Source of the DNA: an uncultured Chloroflexia bacterium | Lineage (GTDB): Bacteria > Chloroflexota > Limnocylindria > Limnocylindrales > CSP1-4 | Assembly (NCBI GenBank): GCA_963828165.1 | Contig: CAWHDR010000005.1 | Location: forward strand, 96,001 to 160,000 | DNA length: 64,000 bases | Direction: 5' to 3' | In this document: piece after piece, positions 13,492 to 39,105 of the stretch | How the letters are laid out: the number at the start of each line of letters is the position of its first letter | Numbering within the stretch: the first letter of the stretch is position 1 | The notes under the pieces: model-generated | Seen by the model: only the letters and a program-made list of their open reading frames with translations | What the model was told of the DNA's origin: nothing | Databases searched by the model: none | Position numbers and translations under genes: made by a program

Positions 13492-13568
13492 TGGTCGGGG
13501 CGGCCGGATTTGAACCGACGACCACCAGTCCCCCAGACTGGTGCGCTACCAGACTGCGCCACGCCCCG
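13492..13568 (-). tRNA. tRNA-Pro (GGG)
   Basis: CGGGGCG acceptor stem, CCAGT-CTGGGGG-ACTGG anticodon arm, GGTTCAAATCC T-arm, encoded CCA; TGCTAGACT extended -10 upstream. Confidence 0.97.
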
Positions 13569-30064: not shown

Positions 30065-30340
30065 TCAGCTCTCGTCGACGCCGCCTTCGGCCGTCACGTC
30101 GATCGTCTCGAGGCCACCGGGCTTGGCGACGAGCTGGCGCATCCGGAGCTCGGCGCTCCGGAGCAGGGTCTCGCAGCGCTCGAGCAGGGCCGCCCCTCGC
30201 TCGTGGAGTGCCAGCGTGCGCTCCAGCGGGAGGCCGCCAGTCTCGAGCTCGGCGATCGTCCGCTGGAGCTCGGCCAGGGCGTCGTCGAAGGTCAGATCGT
30301 CGATCGGCGGCGCCGCGTCAATCGGTTCCGTCACCGGCAT
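30065..30340 (-). CDS. xseB: Exodeoxyribonuclease VII small subunit
   Basis: TFDDALAEL..LETG.LPLE..ERG. Confidence 0.9.
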   Translation of the reverse strand: MPVTEPIDAAPPIDDLTFDDALAELQRTIAELETGGLPLERTLALHERGAALLERCETLLRSAELRMRQLVAKPGGLETIDVTAEGGVDES

Positions 30341-30470
30341 CCTCATCCTTGGGTTCGGAGACCCGCTCGCTCATGCGCCCGATGCGGGGGGCGACCAGCA
30401 TACCGACCACGACCCCGACGATGGCGACGACGGCCACGAACCCGACGAAGACGAGCAGCTCGCCGATCAC
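30318..30470 (-). CDS. Small single-TM protein (50 aa) between xseA and xseB
   Basis: MIGELLVFVGFVAVVAIVGVVVGMLVAPRIGR..DGTD; GTG overlaps the xseA TGA. Confidence 0.65.
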   Translation of the reverse strand: MIGELLVFVGFVAVVAIVGVVVGMLVAPRIGRMSERVSEPKDEDAGDGTD

Positions 30471-32002
30471 GTGGCGTCCGCCTCGTCCACGGTCGCGGCG
30501 ATCTCCCCGCGCGCGACGCGGATGCGCAGCCCGGTACCGGGTGCCGTCTCGCCCGGGTCTCGGACGATCGAGCCGTCCGGTTCCCGCCGCACGATGGCGT
30601 AGCCGCGCTCGAGCGTGGCGGAAGGACCCAGCACGGCCAGGGCCGCGGTCGCGGTGTCAAGCGACGAACGGGCGAGCGCGACGCGTGTGGCCGACTGGCG
30701 CGGCAGCGACATGGCGGCCGTCTCCAGCGCGGCCCGGGCGGCGCTCAGCCGAGCTGCGGTATGGCGCGGCAGGGCGATGGTCGCGGCGTCCAGCCGGAAG
30801 CGCTCCCGCCCCAGGCGGGCCTCGACGGCGCGCGTGGCGCGGTCGAACAAAAGGCCGACCTGCTCTCGGGCGGCCGCCAGACGCGCGGCCGGGCTGACCC
30901 GGTCCAGCGCCCGTCGCTCCACGACGAGGTCGCGTGCGGCCGTGGCAAGACGACGTTCCGTGGCGGCACCGAGGCGATCGGCGGCCCGACGCAGGGCGCC
31001 GGCCATCTCGAGCCGGTCGGGCACGACGATCTCGGCGGCGGCCGATGGCGTGGGCGCGCGAACGTCGGCCGCGAAATCGGCCAGCGTGACATCCACCTCG
31101 TGGCCCACGCCGCAGACCACGGGCATCGGGTGCGCCACCACCGCTCGGACGACCCGCTCGTCGTTGAACGCCCACAGGTCCTCCAGCGAACCGCCGCCGC
31201 GGGCGAGGATGGTCACGGCTGGGGCGTCGTGGTCGCGGCCCTCCTCGCGGCAGTTCGCGGCGTAGCGCTCCACGCGACGGAACGCGGTCACGAGGCTCGC
31301 GGGAGCGCCCTCTCCCTGGACGCGCGCCGCGACGAGAACGACCCGGACGAGCGGCCAGCGGCGGGCCAGCACGTGGCTGATGTCGCGCCAGACCGCGCCG
31401 GACGGGCTCGTGATCACGGCGATGGTCGCGGGGCGCACGGGCAGCGTGCGCTTCCGGGCCGTGTCGAACAGCCCCTCCGCCGCCAGGCGGGCCTTGAGCG
31501 CCTCGAACTTGAGCGCGAGGTCCCCGAACCCTGCCGGCTGGATCGAATCCACGTACAGCTGCATGGCGCCGGTCGGCTCGTACAGGTCGATGCGGCCGTG
31601 GACCACCACGCGCAGCCCGGCCTGGGCCTGGAACGCGCTCCGTCCGCGGTCGTCGCGGAACCAGACGCACTGGAGCTGGTTCCGATCGTCCTTGAGGGCG
31701 AAATAGGCGTGGCCGGCGGACGACACCGTGACCCGCCCGATCTCGCCCTCCACCCACAGGTCGACGAGCCGGGGATCCTGGCGGACCGCTGCGCGAACGG
31801 CGCGGGTGACTTCGCTGACCGCGAGGATCCGGAGCCCGAACGTACCGGGCGCGGTACCGCCCGCAGGCGTGCTCAGGCCAGACTCGCCCGGTGGCGTGGA
31901 TGATCGCCCAGAACGTGTCCGAGGCGGGGTGTCGTCGGCATCCGAGACGGCGTCCCAGCCCGGCAGGGCCCAGTCCGGCGGGTCGGAACCGCGCGCGCTC
32001 AA
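30467..32002 (-). CDS. xseA: Exodeoxyribonuclease VII large subunit
   Basis: WVEGEI, GHAYFALKD, ARGGGSLEDLWAFNDE, GHEVD, TPSAAAE. Confidence 0.96.
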   Translation of the reverse strand: MSARGSDPPDWALPGWDAVSDADDTPPRTRSGRSSTPPGESGLSTPAGGTAPGTFGLRILAVSEVTRAVRAAVRQDPRLVDLWVEGEIGRVTVSSAGHAYFALKDDRNQLQCVWFRDDRGRSAFQAQAGLRVVVHGRIDLYEPTGAMQLYVDSIQPAGFGDLALKFEALKARLAAEGLFDTARKRTLPVRPATIAVITSPSGAVWRDISHVLARRWPLVRVVLVAARVQGEGAPASLVTAFRRVERYAANCREEGRDHDAPAVTILARGGGSLEDLWAFNDERVVRAVVAHPMPVVCGVGHEVDVTLADFAADVRAPTPSAAAEIVVPDRLEMAGALRRAADRLGAATERRLATAARDLVVERRALDRVSPAARLAAAREQVGLLFDRATRAVEARLGRERFRLDAATIALPRHTAARLSAARAALETAAMSLPRQSATRVALARSSLDTATAALAVLGPSATLERGYAIVRREPDGSIVRDPGETAPGTGLRIRVARGEIAATVDEADAT

Positions 32003-32027
32003 CTAGAAGCCCGATCCTCGCTCGCCA

Positions 32028-32585
32028 TCAGAGCCGCGTCTGGTACTCCCCGGTCCGCGTGTCGACGCGGATGGTGTCCCCGGGCTCGACGAAGATCGGG
32101 ACCTGGACGACGAGGCCGGTCTCGGTCGTGGCGGGCTTCCGAGCCCCGGACTGGGTGTCACCGGCGAAGCCCGGTTCCGTCTCGACCACCGCGAGATCAA
32201 CCGTCACCGGCACCTCGACCCCGATCGTCTCGCCCTGGTAGCTCGTGCGATCAAGCGTCATGCCGTCCTTGAGGTACTGCGCCGTCTCGCCCAGCTGATC
32301 GGCGGTGAGGATGAACTGGTCGTACGTGTCGTTGTCCATGAAGTGGTAGTCGCGGTCGTCGCGGTAGAGGAACTGGACCGGCCGCTTCTCCATCGACGCA
32401 CGTGGCCACTTCGTCCCGGCCTGGAACGATCGCTCCACGGTCTGGCCGCGCTTGATGTTGCGCAGGGTGATGCGGACTTGCGCCGACCCTCGGCCCATCT
32501 TGATGTGGTGGTAGTCGAGGATCTGCCAGAGCTCGCCGTCGAGCTCGATGGCGACGCCCTTCTTGAGTTCGCCGGTACTGATCAT
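32028..32585 (-). CDS. efp: Translation elongation factor P
   Basis: KMGRGSA loop (Arg at the tip), KPATTETG, DTRTGEY. Confidence 0.97.
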   Translation of the reverse strand: MISTGELKKGVAIELDGELWQILDYHHIKMGRGSAQVRITLRNIKRGQTVERSFQAGTKWPRASMEKRPVQFLYRDDRDYHFMDNDTYDQFILTADQLGETAQYLKDGMTLDRTSYQGETIGVEVPVTVDLAVVETEPGFAGDTQSGARKPATTETGLVVQVPIFVEPGDTIRVDTRTGEYQTRL

Positions 32586-32753
32586 GTGGTGGTGGGCTCC
32601 TGGGGTCAGACCGCCGGGGCACGCGGCGACGGGGCCGGGGGTGGTCGGGGTCGAGCCGACATTCTAGCCGACGGCCGCGGCCCGCTCGGGCAGCGCCATC
32701 AGCCGCCCCCGGCGTCGGCCCACATGACCGTCACACTCTCCCGGCCATCGACC

Positions 32754-32984
32754 TCACCCGCGATCCCGGATCAGGGAGCGCAGCCGGACCTCGTACTCGG
32801 CCGTGTCGATCTCCCCGCGCGCCAGCCGGCCCTTGAGCTCCGACACTGCGGGATCCTCGCGGGGCGCACTGTTTCGACGGATCGCCCAGACGATGAGCCC
32901 GACCACGAGACCCGTGATGACCAGCGGGATCAGCAGGGTCGCCGCCATGAGCGGCATGAACCAGTCGAAGATCCCGACGTCCAC
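32754..32984 (-). CDS. Small membrane protein with SHOCT domain
   Basis: TM helix then LKGRLARGEIDTAEYE; GAGGGG SD. Confidence 0.8.
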   Translation of the reverse strand: MDVGIFDWFMPLMAATLLIPLVITGLVVGLIVWAIRRNSAPREDPAVSELKGRLARGEIDTAEYEVRLRSLIRDRG

Positions 32985-33074
32985 GGCCTTCACCCCTCGT
33001 TTCGCGACGCAAGCGCAGCCGGCATCATCGCACGCTGGAGTCGCCATCCACGACATCCCCTGCTAGCATCCGAC

Positions 33075-33228
33075 TCGGCGTTCCTCACGCCACACCTCCG
33101 ACCCGGCGCCCACGCCGCCGGCCCGTGGAGGCAAAGGGGCTCCGCCTCGGGGTCGTCGGACCGTGTGCCACGATCGATGGCTCGGGAGCGTGGGTCCTGG
33201 GGTCGTTGGTCGGAACGAGGAGCACACG
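33075..33228 (+). ncRNA. Candidate structured cis-regulatory RNA leader
   Basis: Follows extended -10 TGCTAGCAT; multiple nested stems and a loop complementary to the SD (see findings). Confidence 0.5.
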
Positions 33229-33963
33229 ATGACGACCGACAAGGCGCGCAAGCGCGCCGTTCGCACCCGGATGACCAAGACCGGCGAGCGCTATGCCGCT
33301 GCCCGGCGACACGTCGTCGCGGACGAGGGGCCAGCCACCCCGCCACCCCTCCCGACGCTTCCGCCGCGCGTGGCCGATCCAGGCATGACCGAGGCCGCCA
33401 TCGCGACCGGCACCGGAGCGGGCTGGGACCACTGGTTCGGTCTGCTCGACGGCTGGGGCGGTGCCGAACGCTCGCACACGGACATCGCGCGGTTCATCCG
33501 CGAGGAGCAGGGCGTGAGCGGCTGGTGGGCGCAGGCGGTGACCGTCGGCTACGAACGGGCTCGCGGGCTGCGCGCGATGCATCAGACCAAGCGCGGCTTC
33601 GAGGTGAGCGTCTCCAAGACCGTGGCCGCGCCACCGGCGGACGTCTGGGCCGCGTTCCTGGAGCCCCGAGGCCGCCGCCGCTGGATCGAAGCGGGCACGC
33701 TCGGCAGGCGGCGGACGACCTTTGCCATCGGCCGCTCGACGTCGTTCGCCGGCCCCGACGGAACGCGGGTCGCCGTGGCGATCGACCCTCGCGGGGATGA
33801 CCGCGCGACCGTGACGGTCACGCACGAAGGGCTCGCGGATGCCGGGGATGTCGCGAGACGACGCGCCGCCTGGCGAGACTCGTTGGGCCGGCTCGCGGCG
33901 CTCTACGGAGACCGCTCGGCCCCGAAACAGCCGGCCAGTCGCACGAAACGGTCGGCGCCGTAG
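33229..33963 (+). CDS. Hypothetical protein: basic N-terminal helix, DUF4287-like region, SRPBCC-like domain
   Basis: GAGGAG SD; TG.GWDHW..LD, GWWAQAVTVGYE, VSKTVAAP..VW, VTVTHEGL..W. Confidence 0.8.
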   Translation: MTTDKARKRAVRTRMTKTGERYAAARRHVVADEGPATPPPLPTLPPRVADPGMTEAAIATGTGAGWDHWFGLLDGWGGAERSHTDIARFIREEQGVSGWWAQAVTVGYERARGLRAMHQTKRGFEVSVSKTVAAPPADVWAAFLEPRGRRRWIEAGTLGRRRTTFAIGRSTSFAGPDGTRVAVAIDPRGDDRATVTVTHEGLADAGDVARRRAAWRDSLGRLAALYGDRSAPKQPASRTKRSAP

Positions 33964-33984
33964 CGGACTGCGTGGTCGGGGCCG

Positions 33985-35217
33985 TCAGCCGGCTCCGACC
34001 ACCGTGACCTCGCTCGGGAACCGGGTCAGCCGCTCGACGCGGCCGGCCGGAGCATCGATGGCGATGAGGTCCTCGATGCGGACGCCCATCTGGCCATCGA
34101 GATAGACCCCGGGCTCGACGGAGAAGACCGTCGGGCTCGGGAGGGGTGTCTCCGCGGCGGCCTTCCCGAGTGACGGGGCTTCGTGGGTGGCGAGACCGAT
34201 GCCGTGCCCGGTGCTGTGGCCGAAGTGGTCGCCGTGTCCGCCTTTGTCGATGACCGCACGGGCGATCGCGTCCACGGCCCGGCCGCTGGGTATCTCCCCT
34301 CCTCCGCGCACGGCCTCATCGACCGCGCTGATCGCCGCCGCCTGGGCGCTGGCGACGAGCTCGTAGATCTCCAGATCCCGCGCCACCGGATCGCCCACGA
34401 ACAACGTGCGCGTCATGTCACTCCGGTACCCCTCGACCTGCGCCCCGAAGTCGAAGAGGAGCACCGAACGGTCCAGGACCGGTCGGTCGCCGGGGGCACC
34501 GTGGGGCAGGGCCGCTTCCGCACCTGACAGGCAGGCGACGTCGAACGCGAGCGCCTCCGCCCCACCGGTACGCATGTGCCATTCCAGCCGGAGCGCGAGC
34601 TCCGCCTCGGTCACGCCCGCACGGATCTCCGGCAGGAGCGCCGCGAGGGCCCGGTCGGCGACCGCACACGCCGCCGCGACGCGTTCCAGCTCGGCGGGCT
34701 CCTTGACCGCTCGATCGGCCTCGATCCAGCCCTCGACCGGGACGAGCTCGATGTCCGGCGCCGCGGCGGCCAGGCGCTCCCACGCCGCATGCGACACGAA
34801 CCCGGCCTCGACGCCGACCCGGCGAGCGCCGACGGACCGCACGATCTCGAGCCAGCGTTCGGGCAGGTTGCCGTAGGCCTCGAACAGGCGCGTGTCCGGG
34901 GCCTCGCGCCGGGCCTGGATCGTGTAGCGCGAATCGGCGAGGATCACGACCTCCTCACCCGAGACGAGGAACTGCCCGGAGTTCCCGGCGGACTTCTCCT
35001 CGCCCTCCGCGAGCGTGAACCCCGTCAGGTAGCGCATGTGCTCGCGCCGGACCCCGAAGTAGGCGTCGATGCCGGCGTCGGCGAACCTCGCGCGGAGGCG
35101 GCCGAGTCGAGCCGGGCGCGCCACACGATCGGACTCGGACCAGGCCTCCCGCTGCGCCGTGCCGGGTGGCGCGGCGAAATCCTCGGGGCGGGGCGACGCG
35201 CCCCGCGTCGCCCTCAT
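33985..35217 (-). CDS. Xaa-Pro aminopeptidase (M24B)
   Basis: DFGAQVEGYRSDMTRT, HSTGHGIGLATHE, EPGVY, GVRIED. Confidence 0.95.
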   Translation of the reverse strand: MRATRGASPRPEDFAAPPGTAQREAWSESDRVARPARLGRLRARFADAGIDAYFGVRREHMRYLTGFTLAEGEEKSAGNSGQFLVSGEEVVILADSRYTIQARREAPDTRLFEAYGNLPERWLEIVRSVGARRVGVEAGFVSHAAWERLAAAAPDIELVPVEGWIEADRAVKEPAELERVAAACAVADRALAALLPEIRAGVTEAELALRLEWHMRTGGAEALAFDVACLSGAEAALPHGAPGDRPVLDRSVLLFDFGAQVEGYRSDMTRTLFVGDPVARDLEIYELVASAQAAAISAVDEAVRGGGEIPSGRAVDAIARAVIDKGGHGDHFGHSTGHGIGLATHEAPSLGKAAAETPLPSPTVFSVEPGVYLDGQMGVRIEDLIAIDAPAGRVERLTRFPSEVTVVGAG

Positions 35218-36617
35218 CAGGTGTAGCCGTGTTCGCGCCGGTTCGCGTTGTGCTCGTCGAGATTCTTGGCGAAGACGTGCTTCCCGCTCTCGTCCGGGAT
35301 CGCGAGGAAATAGATGTACTTGTCGGCGGTGTCGGGATGCAGCGCCGCGTCGATCGATGCGAGGGTCGGCGTGTCGATCGGCGCGGGGATGAGGCCGGGC
35401 TGCGTATACGTCTGGAAGCCGAGCAGTTCGTCCGGGAGCACGATGTCCTTCATCCCGATGTCCTTGGGCACGGTCCAGAACCGGTAGTCCTTCCAGGTCT
35501 CGAACTCGAGATCCGAGAGGTTCATCGTGTCGACGGCATAGATGACCGTCGGGTCGGCATTGAAGATCTTGTTCCTGATCCCCGGGATGCCATCCAACCG
35601 GTTCTGGTACACCCCGGCGATCAGCGGCTTTTCCTCGTCGAGCTTGGCTTCGCGTTCGACGATCGAGGCGAGCGTCAGGACCTCGTAGAACGACAAGCCG
35701 CGCTCTTGCGGGACCGTCAGCTTGGCCTCCGTGACGGCGCCGATGAAGCCGTCGAGCATCCGGCGGATCAGCTCTTCGGGGGTGGTGTCGGGCAGCACGC
35801 GATAGGTCCCGGGCCAGAGGAACCCTTCCAGCGACGGTGTCGTGCCCTCCGGGACGTCCTCCAGGACCTTCTCCAGCCACGGGTAGTCCGCGAGCAAGGC
35901 GGCGGGCGGTTCCTTCGCCAGCTCGTAGAACTCGCGCGGGTCCATCTCCAGGGCCGGCACCGTCTGGAGCAACGCCGTGATCTGCTCAAGACGCAAGCCG
36001 GTTCGCAGCGCGATCTCCACGTAGGGCACCTCGGGCGGCGCGAGGAGCGCTACGACGAGCTGCTCCGGAGTCATGTTGCGACGAAGCACGAATGTTCCCT
36101 GCTGGAGATCGCCGGTCAGCTCACGGTCGCTGGCGATGAACACGAAGGCGCGTGGGTCCTTGATCAGGCCACCGGTGCCCAGACGCATGGCGATGGTGGT
36201 GGCCGTATCACCCTCCTCGACGAGGAACTCGACCTGCTCCGGGTCGTCGGACACGGGCTCCGTGAGCGATTCGCCGAGATCCTCGCGCACCAGATCGGCG
36301 ACGAACGGCAGGTTGAGCGCAGCCGGGCTGTCCGCGGCCCACGTGAGGATCGCGTTGTTGACCAGGGGTCGCAGCGCCGTCAGGCCGATGAGCAGCACGA
36401 GGCCGGCGAGGACCAGGGTGAACACGAGGAACTTGACGACGCCGCCCAGGCCGCTTCCGCCGCGGCCACCGCGCCGACCACCGCCGTTCCCATTGCCGGC
36501 TCTGCGTGACGGCTCGTAGGCCTCGGGCACGTAGTCGGTGGCATACGCGTCGGGGTCGAACCTTCGGCCGTGGGGCTGGCGCCGGTCGCGCGGGCGTCCG
36601 CCGGAGCGGATCGTCAT
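35217..36617 (-). CDS. mltG: Endolytic transglycosylase MltG
   Basis: LEGFLWPGTY, LASIVEREA, VYQNRL, DPTV.YA. Confidence 0.92.
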   Translation of the reverse strand: MTIRSGGRPRDRRQPHGRRFDPDAYATDYVPEAYEPSRRAGNGNGGGRRGGRGGSGLGGVVKFLVFTLVLAGLVLLIGLTALRPLVNNAILTWAADSPAALNLPFVADLVREDLGESLTEPVSDDPEQVEFLVEEGDTATTIAMRLGTGGLIKDPRAFVFIASDRELTGDLQQGTFVLRRNMTPEQLVVALLAPPEVPYVEIALRTGLRLEQITALLQTVPALEMDPREFYELAKEPPAALLADYPWLEKVLEDVPEGTTPSLEGFLWPGTYRVLPDTTPEELIRRMLDGFIGAVTEAKLTVPQERGLSFYEVLTLASIVEREAKLDEEKPLIAGVYQNRLDGIPGIRNKIFNADPTVIYAVDTMNLSDLEFETWKDYRFWTVPKDIGMKDIVLPDELLGFQTYTQPGLIPAPIDTPTLASIDAALHPDTADKYIYFLAIPDESGKHVFAKNLDEHNANRREHGYT

Positions 36618-37114
36618 GTGGTGGTCTCCGGTGTGCTGGGTCGGGGACCGGGCGCGGACCCGGCATGTCGCATGTCGAGGGCATCTTGCAGGATGACGGC
36701 GGCCGCTTCGCGGTCGACGCGCGCCCGGTACTCATCGCGCTGGTGACGCGACGGTGGACCGCCCGAGCGACCGCGTTTCATCGGTCCAAGGCGCGTCTCG
36801 GCGACGTGGCTGCTCAGCCGCTCATCGTGCAAGGTGATGATGACATGGTCGCCCAAACGGGCCCGCATGTCCTCCACCCATGCTCTGGTCAGCGCGGCCT
36901 GGGGACCCTCGTGCCCGGCCGCATCGATCGGGAGCCCCACCACCAGCTCGGTGATCTCGTGGGCATCGATGAGCGCGAGAAGCGCATCCGAATCCATGTC
37001 GGCGTGGCGGCCGCGGCGAAGCGTCGTCAGCGGACGCGCCCCGACGTCGGGGCCGTCGGCGATCGCGACGCCGATGCGTCGCTCCCCGAGGTCGAGGCCG
37101 AGCGCTCGGGTCAC
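36614..37114 (-). CDS. ruvX: YqgF/RuvX pre-16S rRNA nuclease
   Basis: LGLDLGERRIGVA, VVGLP, DERLSS, D..AA.VILQ. Confidence 0.93.
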   Translation of the reverse strand: MTRALGLDLGERRIGVAIADGPDVGARPLTTLRRGRHADMDSDALLALIDAHEITELVVGLPIDAAGHEGPQAALTRAWVEDMRARLGDHVIITLHDERLSSHVAETRLGPMKRGRSGGPPSRHQRDEYRARVDREAAAVILQDALDMRHAGSAPGPRPSTPETTT

Positions 37115-39105
37115 GGCGACGCCTCGGGTTCGCCGCTCGGTGTCTGGTCCTGGGCGGGGTCGGAAGTCGTGATCTCGACCCGTGACTCGATCGTCGGGAC
37201 GGTGCCGACCCAATCGGGCCAGACCGTGAGCTGGGCATCGCCGTACCGAGCCAGGATCTCGCGCGCCTGGGCGAGCGGCTTGCCCATGATCTCGGCCTCG
37301 ATCGCATCCGAATCGAGCACGAGGACCTGGCGCGCCGTGACCACGACCGGGAAGGTGATGACGCCGCCGGAGATCTCGGCGGGTGCGGGGACCACTTGCC
37401 CCGAGCCAGGGATCAGCTCGTAGCCCGGATCGACGCTCGACGCGATCCGGGCCTCGGCCACGGTCTGGACGGGCGTCGTGTCCACCGCCACGACCGTCCC
37501 GGAGGCGGTCGCCGACAACTCGAAGGATTCGACCTCCTGTCCCACGAGCGTGGCCGGGTCGACGCCGTAGACCGGGGCGCCGAGGGTCTTGGTCTCAGGG
37601 AATACTGTCGTCGCGTCGCCAGGGAGGGCCGGGTCGTCCAGGCGCTCGTCGAACGCCGCGCTGAGCTGGTCGGTCAGGGCCGCGGTCGCCTCGTCGACGT
37701 CCTCCTGCTGGACCCGCGGGAACTCGGTCCGCTTGCCACCGGTCGTCGCCTCAGGATTGGTCACCTTGAGGAAGAATGGCTCTTCGTCGCGCGGGACCGT
37801 CGTGATCGCGCGCGGTTCGACGTTCCCTTCCGGGCCCGCATCCACCGCCGTGACCGTGACGGAAGCGCGGCTGGGGACGATCGTGAGCCCGACGAGCTCG
37901 GCAGGTGGGACACGCACCGCGCGGTCGGTGCGAAACCGGATCCCCGACCCCGTACTGACGACGCTGCCCCGCGGCACGGTGTTCGAGCTGGTCGGGTCGA
38001 GGTTGTCGAACCGGACGCTGCCCGTCGCCTTGGCCTCCTCGATCCGCTTGCCGGTGGCGGGAAACGTGTCGCTGGCTTCGACATCGATCGTGACCAGCTG
38101 GGCCGGCACGACCGGCGGCGTGGCGCCCGCATCCGGCGCCGTGGCGGTGACGCTCGCGACGATCCGCAGCGACTCGGGGCCGATGGTGCCTTCGCGGGGC
38201 GCGATGACGGCGGTCGCCGTCGGGAGGTACAGGAAGGCGGCCGCGCCACCAACGACGAGGGCGAGCGCGACCACGGCCAGCCCGATGACGAGCGGCGTAC
38301 GACCGATGGACGGGCGGAATGCCCGGCCGACCGCCTCCGGCCGGATCGCCCCGGGACGGTCCCCTTCGATGGCCGGCGTGTCCGCGACGACCCGCGCCGC
38401 CGGGATCGCGGCGGGCCCCCGACCGGCCCGTTTCGGTTCTCCCCTCGGCGGTGCGGACGACCGCGGTCCTCGGTCGGTCGCTGGGGTGGTACCCGCGTCC
38501 ATGCCTGGGGTCGCCATCCCAGCACCCGCGGCCGCGCCGCCAGCCATCGCCGCACCGGCAGACGCCGCAGACGCTGCGGCCAATGCCCCTGCGGCCGCAG
38601 CGGCGCCGGCGGAGGACCGGTCCTTGTCCGGCGTGGCGTCGGGCCGATCCTTGTCCGGCGCGCGCGCTTTCGACCTGGGCGTCGCGACTGTCTCGCTGAC
38701 CAGGGTCCCGTCCGTGAAGTCCTCATCGCCGATGGCGGCGTCGTCATCCGGCCCGTCAGCACCCGACGCCACGCCGGAAGCGACCGCCCCGGCCAAGAGC
38801 CCGGCCTCCCCCTCGGTCCCGGAGCGGTCCTCGTCCAATGAGGACTCGTACTCGCCGACGGTCGCAAAGATCGGCAGGCCCGCCGACGCGGCCAGTGCCC
38901 GCGTGGCGCCGTCTCCCGCCACGATCGAGAGCCGCTTGCCGTTGGTCAGCGCATCGCGCGCCAGGAGACGGAAGTTGATGCGCGAGGTGGCCACCCGCGA
39001 GCCGTACGGCAGCACGACCGCCACCCGGCTCCCCTCCGACGATCGGATGCGAGCCGCCGCCGAGGTGATCTCGTCATCGATGTCGAGGTAGATGACACCG
39101 GCCAT
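37111..39105 (-). CDS. Membrane-anchored baseplate J/gp47-like protein
   Basis: N-terminal IYLDIDDEITS domain, Ala/Pro-rich linker, one TM helix, then KATGSVRF..VPRG.VVST..FRT..V.AVDAG.EGNV..I..VTNPEATTGG, typical of baseplate-J-like domains. Confidence 0.78.
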   Translation of the reverse strand: MAGVIYLDIDDEITSAAARIRSSEGSRVAVVLPYGSRVATSRINFRLLARDALTNGKRLSIVAGDGATRALAASAGLPIFATVGEYESSLDEDRSGTEGEAGLLAGAVASGVASGADGPDDDAAIGDEDFTDGTLVSETVATPRSKARAPDKDRPDATPDKDRSSAGAAAAAGALAAASAASAGAAMAGGAAAGAGMATPGMDAGTTPATDRGPRSSAPPRGEPKRAGRGPAAIPAARVVADTPAIEGDRPGAIRPEAVGRAFRPSIGRTPLVIGLAVVALALVVGGAAAFLYLPTATAVIAPREGTIGPESLRIVASVTATAPDAGATPPVVPAQLVTIDVEASDTFPATGKRIEEAKATGSVRFDNLDPTSSNTVPRGSVVSTGSGIRFRTDRAVRVPPAELVGLTIVPSRASVTVTAVDAGPEGNVEPRAITTVPRDEEPFFLKVTNPEATTGGKRTEFPRVQQEDVDEATAALTDQLSAAFDERLDDPALPGDATTVFPETKTLGAPVYGVDPATLVGQEVESFELSATASGTVVAVDTTPVQTVAEARIASSVDPGYELIPGSGQVVPAPAEISGGVITFPVVVTARQVLVLDSDAIEAEIMGKPLAQAREILARYGDAQLTVWPDWVGTVPTIESRVEITTSDPAQDQTPSGEPEASP

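Follow-up and report, generated by a model that had tools for sequence, protein, structure and literature searches.

The leaders of ribosomal-protein mRNAs, among them the double pseudoknot of the S4/alpha operon and the leaders of S15 and L20, exert autogenous translational control. The N protein of phage lambda, which acts in antitermination, uses an N-terminal arginine-rich motif to bind the nutL boxB hairpin, which lies in its own gene's leader. Rop (Rom) of ColE1 is a helical hairpin that recognises a 7-bp RNA kissing complex by its shape, and the SAM-II, preQ1 and ZTP riboswitches combine pseudoknotted aptamers with platforms that sequester the ribosome-binding site (RBS). We examined a 64,000-nucleotide (nt) stretch of DNA from an uncultured Chloroflexia bacterium (contig CAWHDR010000005.1; the whole stretch is called the window), in which a reading of the letters alone, here called the original prediction, had placed a structured cis-regulatory leader ahead of a gene with an Arg/Lys-rich N-terminal helix. 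Comparative analysis identifies window 33077-33237 as a real structured RNA, the mRNA 5' leader belonging to the gene at 33229-33963, and this RNA is tied to the peptide encoded at the start of that gene. Single-sequence work refers to the window copy and comparative work to homologous leaders.

By analogy, the leader would work most like the ribosomal-protein leaders and the lambda N/nutL pair. It resembles the former in being a pseudoknotted 5' leader beside the RBS of its presumed binder's gene, with the start region trapped, but the presumed binder would here be a 30-residue tag on unrelated, non-ribosomal proteins. With lambda N it shares a basic N-terminal peptide that forms a separable module ahead of other functional parts and has its candidate RNA partner within its own transcript, in the 5' leader. 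Unlike lambda N, which uses one small hairpin for antitermination, the RNA here has about 150 nt and two pseudoknots, no terminator-like sites were found when 32600-34100 was scanned, and the module is cellular: only 3 module loci occurred among 2.9 million viral contigs, which argues that it is not a phage feature. A likeness to Rop lies in the predicted helical hairpin and in a 7-bp kiss that varies in sequence while keeping its complementarity, but the peptide has no sequence relation to any solved chain, and Rop binds its two separate RNAs as a dimer. The SAM-II, preQ1 and ZTP riboswitches are likewise pseudoknotted 5' leaders with conserved junction nucleotides and an occluded RBS, but lack the obligate peptide link seen here, whereas the present leader lacks a common metabolic theme and a match in Rfam.

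In the leader fold, four helices nested in one another's order, P1-P4, are accompanied by a hairpin domain on the 3' side and by two tertiary pairings, the pseudoknots PK1 and PK2. Its parts are as follows.

33077-81 with 33087-91, + strand: P1, the 5'-terminal hairpin, GGCGU with ACGCC, loop UCCUC at 33082-86
33095-99 with 33127-31, + strand: P2, CCUCC with GGAGG, enclosing P3
33103-08 with 33116-21, + strand: P3, CCGGCG with CGCCGG, loop CCCACGC at 33109-15
33132-35, + strand: junction CAAA, invariant
33136-40 with 33144-48, + strand: P4 hairpin, GGGGC-UCC-GCCUC
33083-86 with 33149-52, + strand: pseudoknot PK2, P1 loop CCUC with the GGGG just after P4
33153-33237, + strand: 3' domain, a long irregular hairpin
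33181-87 with 33195-201, + strand: P6, the tip of the 3' domain, CUCGGGA with UCCUGGG, loop GCGUGGG at 33188-94
33109-15 with 33188-94, + strand: pseudoknot PK1, a 7-bp loop-loop kiss, P3 loop CCCACGC with P6 loop GCGUGGG
33162-68 with 33222-28, + strand: base helix of the 3' domain, CGUGUGC with GCACACG, from folding
33153-58 with 33230-35, + strand: base helix of the 3' domain, UCGUCG with UGACGA, from folding
33217-33231, + strand: Shine-Dalgarno (SD) sequence GAGGAG at 33217-22 and start codon ATG at 33229-31, read from the sequence

Pairing was counted for 35 pairs in seven helices over 61 full-length matches to R1, a covariance model made from 17 leaders and the four hand-drawn nested helices P1-P4. 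Because P1-P4 are built into R1 their counts favour them, whereas PK1, PK2 and P6 are independent of the model; two of the 61 leaders (L065 and L066) come from genomes flagged as unpublished, and the result does not depend on them. As a whole, 94.5% of cells were paired, compared with 36-52% when partners were slid by 1-3 columns, compensatory changes on both sides were present in 22 of the 35 pairs, and none of 500 shuffles attained any of five pairing measures. P1 was paired in 98.7% of cells, and its fifth pair covaries (CG 42, UA 7, UG 6, AU 1, GC 1). P2 was 95.8% paired with both-side changes in all five pairs, P3 90.2% with compensatory changes in five of six, P4 100%, and P6 93.9% with compensatory changes in all three pairs counted. 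For PK1, in which the P3 loop meets a downstream GYGUGRG, the figure was 96.7%; for PK2, which joins the P1 loop to the 4-5 nt 3' of P4, it was 86.8%, with a second pair read as UA in 37 leaders, CG in 12, GC in 3 and AU in 1. In PK2, 51 of 79 leaders formed 5 bp or more between their own loop and own partner, against 25.6% with foreign partners. The string AAAGGGG, which runs from the junction into P4, was unchanged in all 17 seed sequences. G-U pairs are frequent, for example in 46 of 61 leaders at one P4 pair; the opposite strand would have C-A at these places, which points to a functional structure on the sense strand.

PK1 was also examined with an alignment-free script in 76 leaders from several phyla. 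A full complement of the leader's own P3 loop was present downstream in 75 of the 76, with 12 loop variants among them, mostly 33-46 nt 5' of the AUG. Foreign loops differing at two or more positions found a full-length complement in 83 of 574 trials, and own loops set against shuffled downstream sequence in 126 of 1520. The variants include CCCACGC:GCGUGGG, CUCACGC:GCGUGAG, CCUGCGC:GCGCAGG, CCCGCGC:GUGCGGG, CCCCCGC:GCGGGGG, CCCCGGC:GCCGGGG and CCCCAGC:GCUGGGG.

These counts bear on several pairings of the original prediction, whose quoted strings are all present in the window, including GCTCC (33139-43), GGAGC (33185-89) and GGTCGGA (33208-14). Its hairpin GGCG-TTCCTCA-CGCC at 33077-91 is P1, and its long-range match of CCCACGC (33109-15) with GCGTGGG (33188-94) is PK1; both are conserved and covary. 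A hairpin it had drawn as CGGCG-CCCA-CGCCG does exist at 33103-33121, but in another register, with stem CCGGCG/CGCCGG and loop CCCACGC. The three-way junction to which that hairpin had been assigned, together with ACAC/GTGT, TCCGAC/GTCGGA (33097-102 and 33155-60), GGCCC/GGGTC and GAGGC/GCCTC, fared no better than chance, being 61.8% paired against a shuffled mean of 60.7% in 61 leaders whose alignment, fitted to P1-P4, possibly puts those helices at a disadvantage. GCCTC pairs instead with GGGGC at 33136-40. The complementarity between the P1 loop and the SD sequence is genuine here at 6 bp, but the two do not vary together (own pairs 4.27 bp, foreign 4.24 bp), and we rejected them as a co-evolving pair; a specific switch made of the two is not supported. 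GGTCGGA as an alternative partner next to the SD sequence found no consistent support when leaders were compared by eye, uncounted. A pairing of our own, J2/3 (CCGAC) with downstream GUCGG-like strings, was dropped as inconsistent by eye in several classes.

The gene behind the leader and its first segment are:

33229-33963, + strand: tagged gene, ATG at 33229, stop at 33963, 244 amino acids (aa)
33229-33327, + strand: N-terminal module MTTDKARKRAVRTRMTKTGERYAAARRHVVADE, a predicted helical hairpin with helices at residues 3-18 and 22-32

The translated protein begins MTTDKARKRAVRTRMTKTGERYAAARR. Its basic hairpin is followed by a Pro-rich linker (residues 33-54), a four-helix DUF4287-like segment (55-111) and an SRPBCC/AHSA1 domain (about 120-227). 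Pfam matched AHSA1 at 6.9e-6 and DUF4287 weakly, at 0.05. AlphaFold2 modelled the protein with a mean pLDDT (its per-residue confidence score) of 90.3 from 57 sequences, with residues 1-30 at 80-93; the C-terminal part has the alpha/beta SRPBCC fold, and its Foldseek matches are AHSA1/START proteins. From this model the peptide is confidently predicted to be a basic helical hairpin followed by a flexible linker. The motif shared by homologous peptides is M-T-x-x-K-x-x-K-x-x-V-R-x-R-M-x-K-T-G-E-x-Y-x-A-A-R, of which K5, K8, R12, R14, T18, G19, E20, Y22, A25 and R26 are invariant in 20 diverse peptides. A ribbon-helix-helix fold was rejected for the peptide, as AlphaFold2 gives a helix at 3-18 and no strand and Pfam is silent on residues 1-40. 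A search of the ESM Atlas with residues 1-34 gave no lead, the best match (0.79) being an unnamed 37-aa cluster.

Leader and peptide were compared from both directions. Starting from the RNA, an open reading frame (ORF) beginning with the peptide lay 3' of all 66 R1 matches of at least 44 bits, although in one of them (L006) the frame breaks after residue 12, and in four the match covers the 5' core only, with the ORF about 100-190 nt further on. Weak R1 matches (30 bits or fewer) were followed by the peptide in none of 8 cases. Starting from the peptide, in 78 of 80 loci an R1 match ran up to the start codon, in 74 of them at E < 1e-5 and in 4 with weaker scores; the remaining two have less than 160 nt of upstream sequence. 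Five actinomycete genomes held eight peptide genes, seven of them with the RNA directly upstream at E < 1e-8 and the eighth with a weak locus-scale match only, and in these genomes all seven strong RNA matches preceded the peptide. By these sequence searches, RNA and peptide were shown to co-occur almost one to one, across phyla and in front of unrelated domains, which upholds the link that the original prediction had drawn between the leader and the Arg/Lys-rich N-terminal helix.

Single divergent loci were also informative. A peptide homologue without R14, M15, K17, E20 and R26 (L111, n=1, from the unpublished genome G536) has no upstream RNA, and a leader variant consisting of P1-P3 only goes with a peptide without K5 and K17 (L102, n=1). 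In a divergent RNA of G536 (L103), the loop complement is retained as CCCCAG:CUGGGG. The L102 variant lies about 90 nt before an ORF at 1501 that belongs to another gene family (301 aa); in it the 3' strand of P2, GGAGG, doubles as a Shine-Dalgarno sequence 9 nt before the ATG.

The proteins that carry the peptide are diverse. Domains found in 78 scanned ORFs were DUF4287 (29), AHSA1 (26), BtrH_N (24) and DUF4872 (21), with a single CN_hydrolase fusion and a single fusion to the C-terminal domain (CTD) of RNA polymerase alpha, other domains being rare; WD40 propeller proteins are also headed by the module. Judged by domain matches, the module sits on at least three unrelated protein families, namely DUF4287+SRPBCC, BtrH_N+DUF4872 and WD40 propellers. 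The alpha-CTD fusion (L160:14-334, 107 aa, PF03118-like at 1.3e-4) is on a short contig labelled Gammaproteobacteria, without upstream sequence. In an actinomycete metagenome-assembled genome (MAG) the ORF ends after 35 residues behind a full leader of 89 bits (L177:829-933); the peptide may stand alone there, or the assembly may be at fault, and several database proteins of 36-60 aa (P0125, P0137 and P0175) resemble this ORF. In L006, L010, L014 and L013, which are MAG loci from the same genus, frameshifts interrupt the tagged genes within or shortly after the peptide, reflecting either assembly errors or real decay.

Relatives were sought at increasing distance. Orthologues of the 244-aa protein were found in 11 of 41 related genomes, and the same search drew unrelated genes alike in residues 1-31 only, whose upstream regions align with the window leader. 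R1 found two copies in the source genome, one at 33070-33237 and another on a different contig before a BtrH_N+DUF4872 gene; it matched in 30 of 151 genomes of the same family, 21 of 151 of the same class and 5 of 151 in a phylum-wide sample. With each of 185,579 species represented by a single genome, a scan with a 35-residue peptide profile produced over 598 pattern matches, and 455 relatives were confirmed; the best 80 of these, all named records, are the 80 loci counted above. Within these best 80, the window peptide's closest kin (91% peptide identity) are Chloroflexota MAGs, and the Chloroflexota comprise MAGs labelled Chloroflexia, Limnocylindrales, Anaerolineaceae and Thermomicrobiales. 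Actinomycetota among the best 80 include Lentzea, Nocardiopsis ganjiahuensis, Planobispora, Planomonospora, Isoptericola, Occultella, Solirubrobacteraceae, Thermoleophilia and Acidimicrobiia, and Acidobacteriota, Gemmatimonadales, Myxococcota and Pirellulales are present as well. Among 1.84 billion representative proteins the profile matched 3955 clusters; of the best 150, nearly all are matched from residue 1 onwards. Around the 80 loci no conserved neighbour genes were seen, in a clustering swamped by low-complexity spurious ORFs. On a linear plasmid of Streptomyces sp. NBC_00989 (L205, 141499-142089) a tagged 'hypothetical protein' adjoins a site-specific integrase gene, behind an R1 match that is weak (20 bits) yet rightly placed; this is a hint that mobile DNA can carry the module.

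Rfam presumably holds the motifs that Weinberg and colleagues described in 2017. The 4227 models of Rfam 15 gave no gathering-level match in the whole window other than a tRNA, only three junk matches of 9-14 bits in 32900-33400 at E up to 10, and no match in 20 diverse homologous loci. Literature searches on the leader, the peptide and the DUF4287, DUF4872, BtrH and SRPBCC proteins found no description, the one paper listed for the two DUF families by themselves being an unrelated one on T6SS, and the terms AHSA1, SRPBCC, BtrH and Chloroflexi are all absent from the main text of Weinberg et al. 2017 (PMC5737381). With covariation in relatives and no Rfam match, the proposal of a structured cis-leader outside Rfam stands: on the comparative evidence the RNA family is real, neither Rfam nor the searched literature contains it, and its coupling to an encoded peptide is of a new kind. 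We know of no described bacterial precedent for a modular RNA-peptide unit that travels between unrelated genes.

We then considered how the leader is placed relative to the transcript and the translation start. The candidate promoter is:

33041-33069, + strand: putative promoter, -35-like TCGCCA at 33041-46, spacer of 17 nt, -10 TAGCAT at 33064-69

The string TGCTAGCAT was read directly at window 33061-69. A putative transcription start is predicted at about 33075-33077, and in 73 of 86 homologous leaders a TANNNT hexamer ends 6-11 nt 5' of the G with which P1 opens, which suggests that P1 is probably the 5' end of the RNA. A generic sigma-70 promoter scan gave no match at 33041-33069. Five soil or ice RNA runs contained 5-7% of the words searched, and contigs 85-95% alike in four metatranscriptome runs span about 33038-33320, promoter included.

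With the consensus helices enforced and the pseudoknot strands left free, 33075-33240 folds at -72.5 kcal/mol (unconstrained, -82.4); the spacer, most of the AUG and codon 2 are then paired, and the SD sequence lies inside an internal loop. Long hairpins also result when the 3' halves of 31 diverse leaders are folded, and the base of these hairpins takes in the SD sequence, the spacer or the AUG. A duplex between a leader's own post-P4 arm and its own RBS averages -26.2 kcal/mol, compared with -21.1 for foreign combinations, and the own pairing beats the foreign mean in 68 of 76 leaders (median rank 0.11). Tested in this way across leaders, the structured element is predicted to overlap and trap the RBS region; the window copy by itself is unremarkable in this respect.

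Our preferred reading, to which we assign a probability of roughly 0.45, is autogenous translational control through binding of the peptide to the leader of its own mRNA. The folded leader would be bound through the basic hairpin by the finished protein, or by a paralogue with the same tag, and the fold that hides the start site would thereby be stabilised, with the base of the 3' domain paired to the spacer, the AUG and the earliest codons. Each tagged gene would in this way limit its own translation. Both the binding and the sign of the regulation are inferred, the binding from co-occurrence only. The strictness of the RNA-peptide coupling is the reason why autoregulation is favoured, without proof, over a riboswitch.

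Several observations weigh against this reading. No covariation between peptide residues and RNA features was seen by eye in 79 tabulated pairs. In the window copy the arm/RBS duplex is average (-22.0 versus -21.2 kcal/mol, rank 0.44). The peptide profile found no solved RNA-binding relative in the PDB, with one chance match at E 0.96. The conserved junction nucleotides CAAA and AC are also what would be expected of a ligand pocket. The relatives' metatranscriptome contigs also span the promoter and therefore make no start visible; they reveal no start site and no transcription in the source organism. Finally, the minimum free energy of 33061-33235 is -83.1 kcal/mol against -81.3 +/- 4.9 for dinucleotide shuffles (z -0.37), with 67 of 200 shuffles folding at least as well and the reverse strand at z -1.37. 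We set aside single-sequence thermodynamics as uninformative in a region of about 72% GC. The original prediction had named a folding energy no better than that of dinucleotide shuffles, or an absence of conserved or covarying structure, as grounds for abandoning the leader; the energy is indeed no better, and the structure is clearly conserved and covarying.

The alternative that survives best, although we think it unlikely, is a riboswitch, in which the 5' domain would bind a small molecule or ion and control the RBS-hiding 3' hairpin, the peptide being a co-inherited tag with a separate job such as targeting or nucleic-acid binding. The complex fold with two pseudoknots and invariant unpaired CAAA, AC and CGGG is in keeping with it, as are an RBS complementarity that resembles an expression platform, the position of the element right at the predicted mRNA 5' end, and the lack of an intrinsic-terminator-like site, which fits translational control. 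A ligand sensor alone, however, leaves unexplained that neither RNA without peptide nor peptide without RNA was found. The domains encoded downstream have no known function and no relation to one another, suggesting no shared metabolite and no one coherent pathway; the sole common denominator is the N-terminal peptide, and no Rfam aptamer matches.

A further possibility, which we consider rather improbable, is a ribonucleoprotein or tethering module: the protein, nascent or finished, would dock in cis on its own leader, or else the tag would bind another structured RNA that the leader mimics, such as rRNA, placing the C-terminal domain on RNA or the translation machinery while the leader buffers free protein. 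The same coupling data are compatible with it, and so are the long flexible linker between tag and globular domains, the fusion to an alpha-CTD-like domain in L160 and a short local likeness of the peptide to bL34 (RARM..TG). That likeness is weak, however (hhalign probability 14.7%, 14 columns only); bL34 (PF00468) was rejected as the origin of the peptide, and in the source genome the PF00468 model finds a single locus, the true rpmH.

We give still less credence to a constitutive or physical element, that is, an mRNA stabiliser whose 5' hairpin is protective, an RNA thermometer or the target of an unrelated trans-acting protein or small RNA, with the peptide link reflecting mere common descent of a leader-plus-first-exon-like block. 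A 5'-terminal hairpin that starts at the predicted start site and a paired start codon would suit such an element, and adjacency alone could let leader and peptide travel together. It would not keep both intact across several phyla and at least three gene families with no decoupled case among those examined, however, and two covarying pseudoknots exceed the needs of a stabiliser or thermometer. That the pairing is non-functional, arising by chance in GC-rich DNA or marking a DNA operator, is hardly credible despite the shuffle-like energy and high GC content, being refuted by the pair counts with their compensatory changes, G-U pairs and variable-length hairpin tips, and by the PK1 complement tests.

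Returning to autogenous control, a wider version of it would be a portable, gene-independent RNA-plus-peptide feedback cassette, grafted onto unrelated genes in at least 4-6 phyla, whose hairpin recognises the kissing-loop/double-pseudoknot shape. We advance this tentatively, at something short of even odds. Were it true, any protein that gained leader and tag would become self-limiting and cross-regulated with the other tagged proteins of the cell. If the peptide binds the RNA, the pair would be a modular control unit that moves whole between unrelated genes and, if so, a compact orthogonal feedback part useful for synthetic biology. The RNA itself is new and widespread (soil Chloroflexota, many actinomycetes and Acidobacteriota), with a clear architecture and two covarying pseudoknots, and the module offers a handle on DUF4287-SRPBCC and BtrH_N-DUF4872 proteins, whose functions are unknown.

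The leader also matters for annotation. Among the 3955 clusters at least two gene calls, P0144 and P0165, run through the leader RNA, being extended 70-90 residues upstream; their true start is the M of MPTQK. Entries in which the peptide match starts at residue 24-131 could have the same miscalled start.

In the window, the 5' neighbour of the tagged gene is divergent and the ORF 3' of it convergent, for which reason the gene looks monocistronic. The divergent neighbour is:

32754-33056, minus strand: small membrane protein with a SHOCT-like C-terminus (Pfam 7.7e-5, below cut-off)

Because the start of this neighbour is ambiguous, with an internal ATG near 32946, the intergenic region that it shares with the tagged gene could measure 170-280 nt. 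From the ORF translations we take the minus strand of 30065-37213 to be a housekeeping neighbourhood, presumably with the small and large subunits of exonuclease VII (30065-30346 and 30467-32002), elongation factor P (32028-32585), a Xaa-Pro aminopeptidase-like ORF (33985-35880), an MltG/YceG-like ORF (35217-36617) and a RuvX-like ORF (36614-37213), all on the minus strand. The tagged gene is the lone + strand gene amid these ORFs. The sole Rfam gathering-level match in the window, the tRNA gene mentioned above, lies at 13495-13568 on the minus strand and scores 63 bits.

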